Assembly: GCA_964543655.1 (NCBI GenBank)
Contig: CAZIZE010000085.1
Location: 1-61,942 of the forward strand
Direction: 5' to 3'
From: an uncultured bacterium
GTDB lineage: Bacteria; DYJV01
Length of the DNA: 61,942 nucleotides
In this document: one piece after another, positions 36,538 to 36,735 of the stretch
Position numbering within the stretch: the first letter of the stretch is position 1
Layout: each line of letters opens with the position of its first letter
Position numbers and translations under genes: made by a program
Notes under the pieces: generated by a model
Databases searched by the model: none
What the model was told of the DNA's origin: nothing
The model's input: the letters and a program-made list of their open reading frames with translations, nothing else

Positions 36538-36735
36538 TTATGCAAATCTTAAACTAAGTGCTGCAATTCCTGATAATTCCTGGTCAAAATCTTTTGCTTC
36601 ATAATGCTCCAATGATAATTTCTCAAGCTCAAGATCAAGAGAAATTTTTAAAGACTTTTCACCTGATTCAAGTGCTCTTTTGATAATAGAACAGGGAATT
36701 TGAATTGTCAATGTTTCATTTGTTCTTTTTACCAT
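36538..36735 (-). CDS. 65-aa hypothetical protein directly downstream of the Trp attenuator
   Basis: AAGGAG SD 7 nt before ATG 36735; [65 protein letters not shown]; stop 10 nt before hisF. Confidence 0.75.

Follow-up and report, generated by a model that had tools for sequence, protein, structure and literature searches.

A small orphan protein gene behind a predicted tryptophan attenuator, with a candidate hisF promoter inside its coding sequence

The window considered here is a contig of 61,942 nucleotides (CAZIZE010000085.1, here C85) from the genome of an uncultured bacterium (GTDB lineage DYJV01; assembly GCA_964543655.1, here G000). On its minus strand, between an apparent tryptophan (Trp) attenuator and the histidine gene hisF, lies a small gene, termed X (36538..36735), that specifies an acidic protein of 65 amino acids (aa) plus stop. 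There is little doubt that X is a real protein-coding gene, and the arrangement of the locus makes its control by the attenuator likely. Because X is placed after a conserved leader with three consecutive Trp codons (WWW) and a terminator, it is expected mainly at low Trp-tRNA charging. By analogy with anti-TRAP of Bacillus, to which it is unrelated, X may be a Trp-starvation-specific small protein that binds a partner, a reading offered tentatively. Where hisF follows X, the coding sequence of X also holds a candidate promoter, P2, from which hisF could be transcribed.

An exhaustive HMMER search over 1.84 billion representatives and a profile search over 5.8 billion clusters yielded three orthologues of X, of 70-72 aa (P0002, P0004 and P0005), making four with the window copy; a fifth, distant homologue is described below. 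All three orthologous loci repeat the organisation of the window, namely a TTGAC promoter, a leader of the form MM..YWWW, the same terminator, a Shine-Dalgarno (SD) sequence, the small open reading frame (ORF) and, 10-14 nucleotides (nt) further on, hisF. The gene upstream of this attenuator-X-hisF unit is a different one in each of the four genomes.

In the window, where all features of the unit are on the minus strand, the unit begins with the putative promoter P1 (36882..36910), which reads TTGACT-17 nt-(TGt)TATTTA and whose TTGAC and TG-n-TA elements align across the four species. Only 6 nt, with no SD among them, separate the end of the -10 element from the tandem ATG ATG of the leader, and this layout (36873-36910 in the window) is the same in all four species, suggesting that the leader peptide may be translated from a leaderless mRNA. 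No conserved operator-like repeat was seen around P1. The leader peptide ORF (36816..36875) encodes MMKRNYWWWQIKSCVVNQR in 19 codons followed by a stop, with the three consecutive TGG codons at 36857-36849, and the orthologous leaders read MMIKNYKNNYWWWRLKSCEVNLR, MMRKMYKNYWWWKLKSCEVNQR and MMLRINSLTNYWWWHIFFKSGMRLR. It is followed by an intrinsic terminator, AGCCGTGAGG-TTTA-CCTCACGGCT plus T9 (36764..36795), a G+C-rich hairpin of 10 base pairs (bp) whose stem shows one compensatory A:T to G:C change in the orthologous locus L010. A 99-aa frame that opens at a TTG at 36837 passes through this terminator and was set aside as an artefact of ORF listing.

The last codons of the leader form the 5' strand of a predicted antiterminator, AAAAGUUGUGUGGUAAACC-A-GCGG (36818..36842), which in ViennaRNA folds pairs with the 5' arm, the loop and the 3' arm of the terminator. 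For the free leader RNA of the window, the long antiterminator helix is predicted at -37.1 kcal/mol versus -18.8 kcal/mol for the terminator alone, and such a helix is predicted in three of the four orthologous loci (-37 to -44 kcal/mol, versus about -19 for the terminator). With a ribosome positioned on the stop codon of the leader, the antiterminator strand would be hidden, and when the RNA is masked in this manner the terminator alone remains. A search of Rfam over 34000-39000 gave no Trp_leader match; its sole match was suhB/mmgR at 21.9 bits, below the cut-off of 41, and this merely picks up the terminator hairpin. Thus, the description of X as attenuator-controlled in the original prediction is well founded as far as architecture goes, since a WWW leader and a terminator precede the gene at the four orthologous loci and at that of the distant homologue. 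Its further proposal that X is made when Trp is scarce gains support from the same position in five genomes, in one of which X is the sole cistron.

The proposed working of the attenuator is as follows. When Trp-tRNA is plentiful, the ribosome would reach the leader stop codon and mask the antiterminator strand, and transcription would stop ahead of X at the GCCGTGAGG hairpin and T9 tract. Stalling of the ribosome at the three Trp codons would allow the antiterminator to form, and X would then be transcribed and translated from its own strong ribosome-binding site. This site, AGGAG (36742..36746), ends 6 nt before the ATG of X, and GGAG or GGAGG stands 5-7 nt ahead of the ATG in every orthologue.

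The coding nature of X is supported by several patterns among the orthologues. The proposed frame is the only stop-free frame common to all four genes, the other five containing 2-13 stops each. A random 65-codon frame of the same composition would be open with a chance of 0.3%, and a neutrally diverged copy with one of 2-5%, giving a joint chance of about 1e-5 to 1e-4 that the frame is kept open across four diverged species. The indels that distinguish the orthologues, of 3, 6 and 15 nt, are all in frame. Over the 25 columns with an invariant residue, variable nucleotides number 2, 0 and 13 at the first, second and third codon positions, respectively. The ratio of nonsynonymous to synonymous substitution rates (dN/dS) in pairwise comparisons is 0.47-0.55 for the whole of X and lower in its C-terminal motif, versus 0.04-0.08 for hisF.

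These frame, indel, codon-position and dN/dS patterns place X under purifying selection in two segments, between which an acidic linker evolves fast. The N-terminal segment, delimited from the alignments and an AlphaFold2 model, covers residues 8-36 (36628..36714). The C-terminal motif covers residues 53-64 (36544..36579), 12 residues that are followed by one variable residue and the stop codon; here nine third positions and no second position vary, and the three first-position changes are synonymous switches of Leu codons or conservative L/I and I/V replacements. The motif is preceded by the variable linker, rich in acidic residues and indels (residues 40-52). The original prediction had named a lack of homologues, a lack of purifying selection and identity as a truncated piece of a known gene as grounds for abandoning the protein; homologues and selection were found, and a tblastn search of X against its own genome, which might have exposed a gene fragment, returned nothing. 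For the X-hisF region as RNA, RNAalifold gave a consensus of only -6.6 kcal/mol with a negligible covariation term, which is not regarded as meaningful.

The earlier description of the gene and its product was borne out: the SD is strong, and the protein lacks Trp and a signal peptide, contains a single Cys, is acidic in its second half and is hydrophobic at its end. Its N-terminus is not hydrophobic, its last residues are AALSLRFA, and the single Cys is not conserved, being replaced by Tyr in one orthologue. The isoelectric point (pI) of the window copy is 5.3, and the four orthologous proteins are acidic as wholes (pI 4.5-5.5). Read from the sequence, the net charge of the first 30 residues is positive.

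That X has no recognisable family, as had also been stated, was confirmed. No match was found in Pfam, NCBIfam or PADLOC, a sequence profile search of PDB was empty, and PHROGs returned a single Arc-like match (E=0.04) for one of the four members. A word-seeded search returned only X itself, and the C-terminal motif is carried by no other ORF in the genome. AlphaFold2 models built on three- and four-sequence alignments are of low confidence (mean predicted local distance difference test, pLDDT, 62-64; about 80 over residues 11-30) and depict a monomer with coil or strand at residues 8-14, a helix at 15-23, strands at 28-36 and 55-63, disorder at 44-54 and no second helix after the first; Foldseek of this low-confidence model against PDB gave nothing below E=1. 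An 846-aa TPR protein (P0003) in which the repeated EKSLKIQLELF resembles a piece of X was dismissed as repeat noise.

Membership in several families of small proteins was rejected. For the ribbon-helix-helix (RHH) fold, there is no Pfam or NCBIfam match at E<=10, and hhalign gave a probability of 0.3% against a small hand-entered set of Arc, CopG, ParD and Mnt sequences and 1.0% against a CopG family alignment, with 13-16 N-terminal residues aligned; the matches of the CopG family alignment confirmed the CopG sequence entered. The suggestion of an RHH-like regulator in the original prediction thus found no support, residues 28-36 being modelled, at low confidence, as a strand and not as helix B. 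The swapped-hairpin AbrB/MazE family fared no better (0.2%, 12 aligned columns, no Pfam match), and neither did the ferredoxin-like domain of DAHP synthase (PF18152; 0.6% against a 75-aa protein of contig C50) or the RelB-like antitoxins (PF18506; 1.8%), there being no toxin-like ORF beside X.

The distribution of X was followed in the candidate phylum, for which the set examined includes six species genomes, and beyond it. By scanning all copies of the phylum's terminator motif for aromatic leaders, a distant homologue was found in the sister genus (genome G003), where a leader MTGRVFSVSAIWWWRSFKIPLCLR is followed by a terminator, an AAGGAGG sequence and a 59-aa ORF, MSNGIIIKVKPEIITEAMKKGVEKINIEIILKEENLLENNDKSFKEYGYSGVETLSMRI. 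An hhalign comparison of the four-member X alignment with this ORF gave a probability of 80% (E=1.4e-5, 56 columns), and the alignment spans both conserved segments and reaches the C-terminus, the G003 protein ending in SGVETLSMRI; the C-terminal consensus of the family is SG-V/I-x-x-LS-L/M-R-F/I. A 7-bp antiterminator pairing is visible by eye at this locus. The homologue is monocistronic, in that a convergent gene begins 4 nt past its stop codon, and hisF is on another contig. The contig that carries it is also present in a hydrothermal-vent metagenome.

Six-frame searches revealed no credible X homologue in phylum genomes other than G000, G001 and G003, and none in the other 395 genomes, where weak matches fell inside long ORFs. 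A five-member profile run against all 401 genomes in six frames added no further members, and scans of genome and metagenome contigs returned the same organisms only. X thus appears to represent a new and very narrow family, with five known members in two genera of one family of the candidate phylum. In G002 to G005, hisF (81-85% identical) lies behind an ordinary promoter region that lacks both the attenuator and X. Because the G003 homologue has a WWW leader and a terminator without hisF, the presence of X goes, by this comparison, with the Trp attenuator rather than with hisF.

In the window, hisF (35745..36527, minus strand) is an orthodox gene for the cyclase subunit of imidazole glycerol phosphate synthase (TIGR00735, 385 bits versus a cut-off of 294.55). 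It starts 10 nt past the stop codon of X, and its GGAG (36536-36533) abuts that stop codon. There is a single hisF in the genome, and hisH is elsewhere, beside hisD and hisB. The histidine genes are scattered, with a hisD-hisB-hisH cluster on G000 contig C11 (44668-47211) and hisA alone beside moaA and moaC-like genes on contig C1 (38902-39690); a leader and terminator scan saw no His-codon leader. Only two positions set the HisF proteins of the four X-bearing genomes apart from those of all four relatives lacking X, K68 (R in the relatives) and K201 (E, N, S or T). The idea that HisF replaces TrpF or another Trp enzyme was rejected, as the genome has a full trpEGDCFBA set besides its one hisF and hisH. 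With the Trp pathway complete, hisF orthodox and hisH normal, there is no enzyme gap that would call for a new subunit.

The candidate promoter P2 (36683..36711, minus strand) was found by a consensus scan and matches 11 of 12 positions of the sigma-70 consensus, with TTGACA at 36711-36706, a 17-nt spacer and TATTAT at 36688-36683. Its hexamers overlie codons L9 T10 and S16 I17 I18 of X on the sense strand, and the predicted start of a hisF mRNA is near 36676, about 7 nt downstream of the second hexamer. All four X genes linked to hisF carry P2 unchanged at ORF position 25, and the stand-alone G003 homologue does not have it. The four synonymous sites within its hexamers are all invariant in the hisF-linked genes, whereas the third position varies in 13 of the 25 codons for invariant residues. 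By genome codon usage the joint probability of the P2 codons is 0.008, TTG making up 9.9% of Leu codons. On these grounds, P2 is somewhat more apt to be a working hisF promoter than a chance resemblance. If active, it would yield a Trp-independent hisF mRNA, starting near 36676, that is unable to encode X. Such an mRNA would make it understandable that an essential histidine gene lies downstream of a Trp attenuator, and would account for that attenuator ahead of hisF without any metabolic link between Trp and His. In the hisF-linked genus, hisF would then probably be transcribed regardless of Trp, with read-through of the attenuator providing only a boost, and X would be the sole strictly Trp-starvation-dependent product of the unit.

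What the protein would do under Trp starvation is suggested by its construction, in which a small conserved core of helix plus strand would be tied through an acidic flexible linker to an invariant C-terminal strand. Because X is small and acidic, with a flexible linker and an invariant terminal strand, binding to a protein is its most likely mode of action, and at present this is a possibility rather than an expectation. A bolder version, in which X is the effector of a new Trp-starvation response, has a new fold and docks by its C-terminal strand on a central enzyme or regulator, with a selected overprint of the hisF promoter in one genus, is doubtful. Candidate docking targets under that version are anthranilate synthase, imidazole glycerol phosphate synthase, Trp-tRNA synthetase and the sliding clamp; in the last case, the xLSLRF tail loosely resembles the QLxLxL-type motif of the clamp.

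Several observations weigh against the reading of X as a starvation-specific, partner-binding protein and against the role given to P2. A whole-gene dN/dS of about 0.5 signifies weak overall constraint, and the structure models are of low confidence (pLDDT 62-64). The antiterminator pairing is not evident in the minimum-energy fold of the fourth orthologue, L010, and the homology of the G003 protein consists of one profile-sequence comparison at 80% together with shared context. The genome has a G+C content of 30%, and promoter matches at 11 of 12 positions turn up in its coding sequences too, 123 of the 179 genome-wide matches falling inside long ORFs (0.03 per kb in coding DNA), so P2 could be a by-product of conserved X residues. 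Because such matches are not rare, the case for P2 is built on its conservation pattern and its correlation with hisF and not on the match alone.

Four other explanations were weighed against the partner-binding reading. X might be a dedicated subunit or modulator of HisF that, when Trp is limiting, is produced alongside additional HisF and assembles with it during translation, as is suggested by its place 10-14 nt upstream of hisF in four species with differing upstream neighbours, by the hisF SD that abuts its stop codon, and by the clade-specific Lys at position 201 of HisF in the X-bearing clade. Yet the G003 homologue is monocistronic with hisF on a different contig, only two positions of HisF are specific to the clade, the genome has an ordinary hisH, and the conserved P2 would uncouple hisF transcription from X, making a HisF subunit unlikely. 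The modulator-of-HisF claim of the original prediction is accordingly weakened: the linkage to hisF stands in four species, each with a likely internal hisF promoter, and does not extend to the G003 gene. The same proximity could signify that X is a cis-acting ORF that sets hisF translation by translational coupling or by a C-terminal arrest peptide, its product being irrelevant. The last 12 residues are indeed the best conserved and always lie one residue from the stop codon, with the hisF SD 1-8 nt later. This explanation is very improbable, given that the C-terminal motif persists in the G003 homologue, which has no gene downstream, that the N-terminal segment is also constrained at the amino-acid level and that P2 would supply hisF with an mRNA of its own.

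A small DNA-binding regulator of the RHH or AbrB/MazE type, with an N-terminal strand in the DNA groove and an acidic tail, that switches a Trp-starvation regulon on or off, is brought to mind by the N-terminal K-L-T-I-Q-I-P and the helix after it, which resemble the CopG strand KRLTITLS, by the lone Arc-like PHROGs match and by the net positive first 30 residues. It is a distinctly poor prospect, however, as Pfam and NCBIfam are empty, the hhalign comparisons (0.3%, 1.0% and 0.2%) align only 12-16 columns, residues 28-36 have an alternating hydrophobic-polar pattern and form a strand in the model, the protein as a whole is acidic and P1 has no conserved operator-like repeat around it. About as improbable is that X is a young, lineage-restricted frame of marginal or no function, or simply a hisF promoter and 5' untranslated region that happens to be open. 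The restriction to one bacterial family, a dN/dS far from the 0.04-0.08 of hisF, the variable and indel-rich middle third and the low-confidence structure prediction all suit this view, and the near-consensus promoter explains part of the N-terminal nucleotide conservation. Against it, all four diverged species have retained an open frame, their indels preserve the reading frame, and SD and ATG are conserved; moreover, synonymous variation falls over invariant residues, and a homologue without the promoter is retained in a second genus.

The attenuator design is not confined to X. A terminator of the form GCCGTG..CACGGC followed by a T-run was found in all six phylum genomes, with no matches for reversed-pattern controls, and across the phylum aromatic operons, the aro/trp operon among them, likewise follow such a leader and terminator. 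In G000, an aromatic supra-operon is preceded by the leader MNKIFYNTNFYFWFYFKKNMREVRPR (L014:1040-1230; contig C72, about 4040-4230) and by a terminator nearly identical to that of X. It contains genes for ADH synthase and dehydroquinate synthase II, tyrA, pheA, trpEGDCFBA and aroA, and no Trp-specific attenuator is dedicated to its trp genes, in contrast to trpE of G003 and G004. The trpG-trpD spacer of this supra-operon (167 nt; L014:6819-6937, C72 9818-9936) is bounded by a perfect long-range inverted repeat of 12 bp, ATACAAAACCAA ... TTGGTTTTGTAT, and contains a TGGTGG in frame after the trpG stop codon; it has no Rfam match and might act within the trp genes as a regulatory RNA.

A third attenuator of G000 (L029; contig C50, about 9890-10293 in contig coordinates) has the leader MISRSNFYFYFYFKRPR, an F/Y leader, and two tandem terminators. 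Behind it are a 75-aa stand-alone protein that matches PF18152 with E=3.3e-5, just under the cut-off, an XRE-cupin regulator gene, and four genes for 2-oxoacid:ferredoxin oxidoreductase subunits. The pair of attenuator and 75-aa protein also occurs in G001, G002 and G003. A free regulatory domain of DAHP synthase is odd in an organism that uses the archaeal ADH-synthase route; no DAHP synthase gene was present in the regions read, and none was searched for. In G004 (L033:1640-2260, contig C285), a toxin-antitoxin pair seems to be subject to Trp attenuation: its RelB-like antitoxin (PF18506, E=6e-22) follows a Trp leader similar to that of X, MMKNNYWWSWWKIFRFRG, and a terminator, and its other member is a toxin of the ParE/RelE type (PF05016). 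Directly behind the pair lies trpE, which has a second Trp leader and terminator ahead of it. In G005 (L032, contig C22), a 257-aa ORF follows a terminator and the leader MKSLLKFNLNNWWWWNTTKSGEIPR, which has four Trp codons; the N-terminus of the ORF looks by eye like TrpD (anthranilate phosphoribosyltransferase), yet the ORF is short for that enzyme.

Leader-peptide attenuators are textbook switches for biosynthetic enzymes, and here one drives an orphan small protein that in the sister genus is the sole cistron. Because X can stand alone behind a Trp attenuator, the organism seems to meet Trp shortage with something beyond more Trp enzymes. To our knowledge, the only well-studied precedent for a small protein of Trp starvation is the Bacillus anti-TRAP protein. 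Knowledge of the partner of X would show how the response to amino-acid starvation is organised in an uncultured phylum of hydrothermal settings that has hardly been sampled. The candidate promoter in codons 9-18 of X, found only where hisF follows, offers a compact and testable example of dual coding, and, if true, the overprint of P2 on X, under selection in one genus, would be a clean example from nature of protein and promoter compromising at the level of codons.

Among the closest known systems are the other payloads of the phylum's attenuators (trpE operons, the RelB/ParE-type pair and the 75-aa ferredoxin-like domain), which share the leader and the GCCGTG..CACGGC terminator and include small first cistrons that, like X, directly follow the terminator; X is unrelated to the RelB-like antitoxin (1.8%) and to the ferredoxin-like domain (0.6%). 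The RHH proteins (CopG, Arc and MetJ; RHH_1, PF01402) are likewise small, with an alternating N-terminal strand, a helix and a C-terminal extension, whereas X has no significant profile match to them, a strand pattern after its first helix and an acidic character overall. The enterobacterial trp operon is controlled by the trpL leader-peptide attenuator, and an internal promoter, trp p2, within an upstream coding sequence provides Trp-independent expression of its distal genes. The unit described here resembles it in the tandem Trp codons of a short leader, the intrinsic terminator with a competing antiterminator, here predicted in three of four loci, and the candidate internal promoter in an upstream gene. 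It differs in that an orphan small protein and hisF would be controlled rather than trp genes, that the leader mRNA of the window appears to lack an SD, that Rfam Trp_leader does not match and that the terminator design is specific to the phylum.

The anti-TRAP protein of Bacillus subtilis (RtpA, or AT), described by the Yanofsky laboratory, has 53 aa and is preceded by the leader peptide rtpLP with three consecutive Trp codons. AT is a Cys-rich, DnaJ-like protein that binds zinc through CxxCxGxG motifs; its transcription is under T-box control, and rtpLP acts on its translation. X differs from it in having 0-2 non-conserved Cys, no CxxC motif and no sequence match; each of the four orthologues has one Cys, at no conserved position, and the G003 homologue none. 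A six-frame search of G000 turned up no gene for TRAP (PF02081), with a positive B. subtilis control, and no TrpR gene was found in the genome. The likeness is one of logic: a very small protein, a leader with three Trp codons and a link to low Trp-tRNA charging that for X is read from the architecture of five genomes. AT acts by binding another protein, not as an enzyme, and the same is proposed for X.

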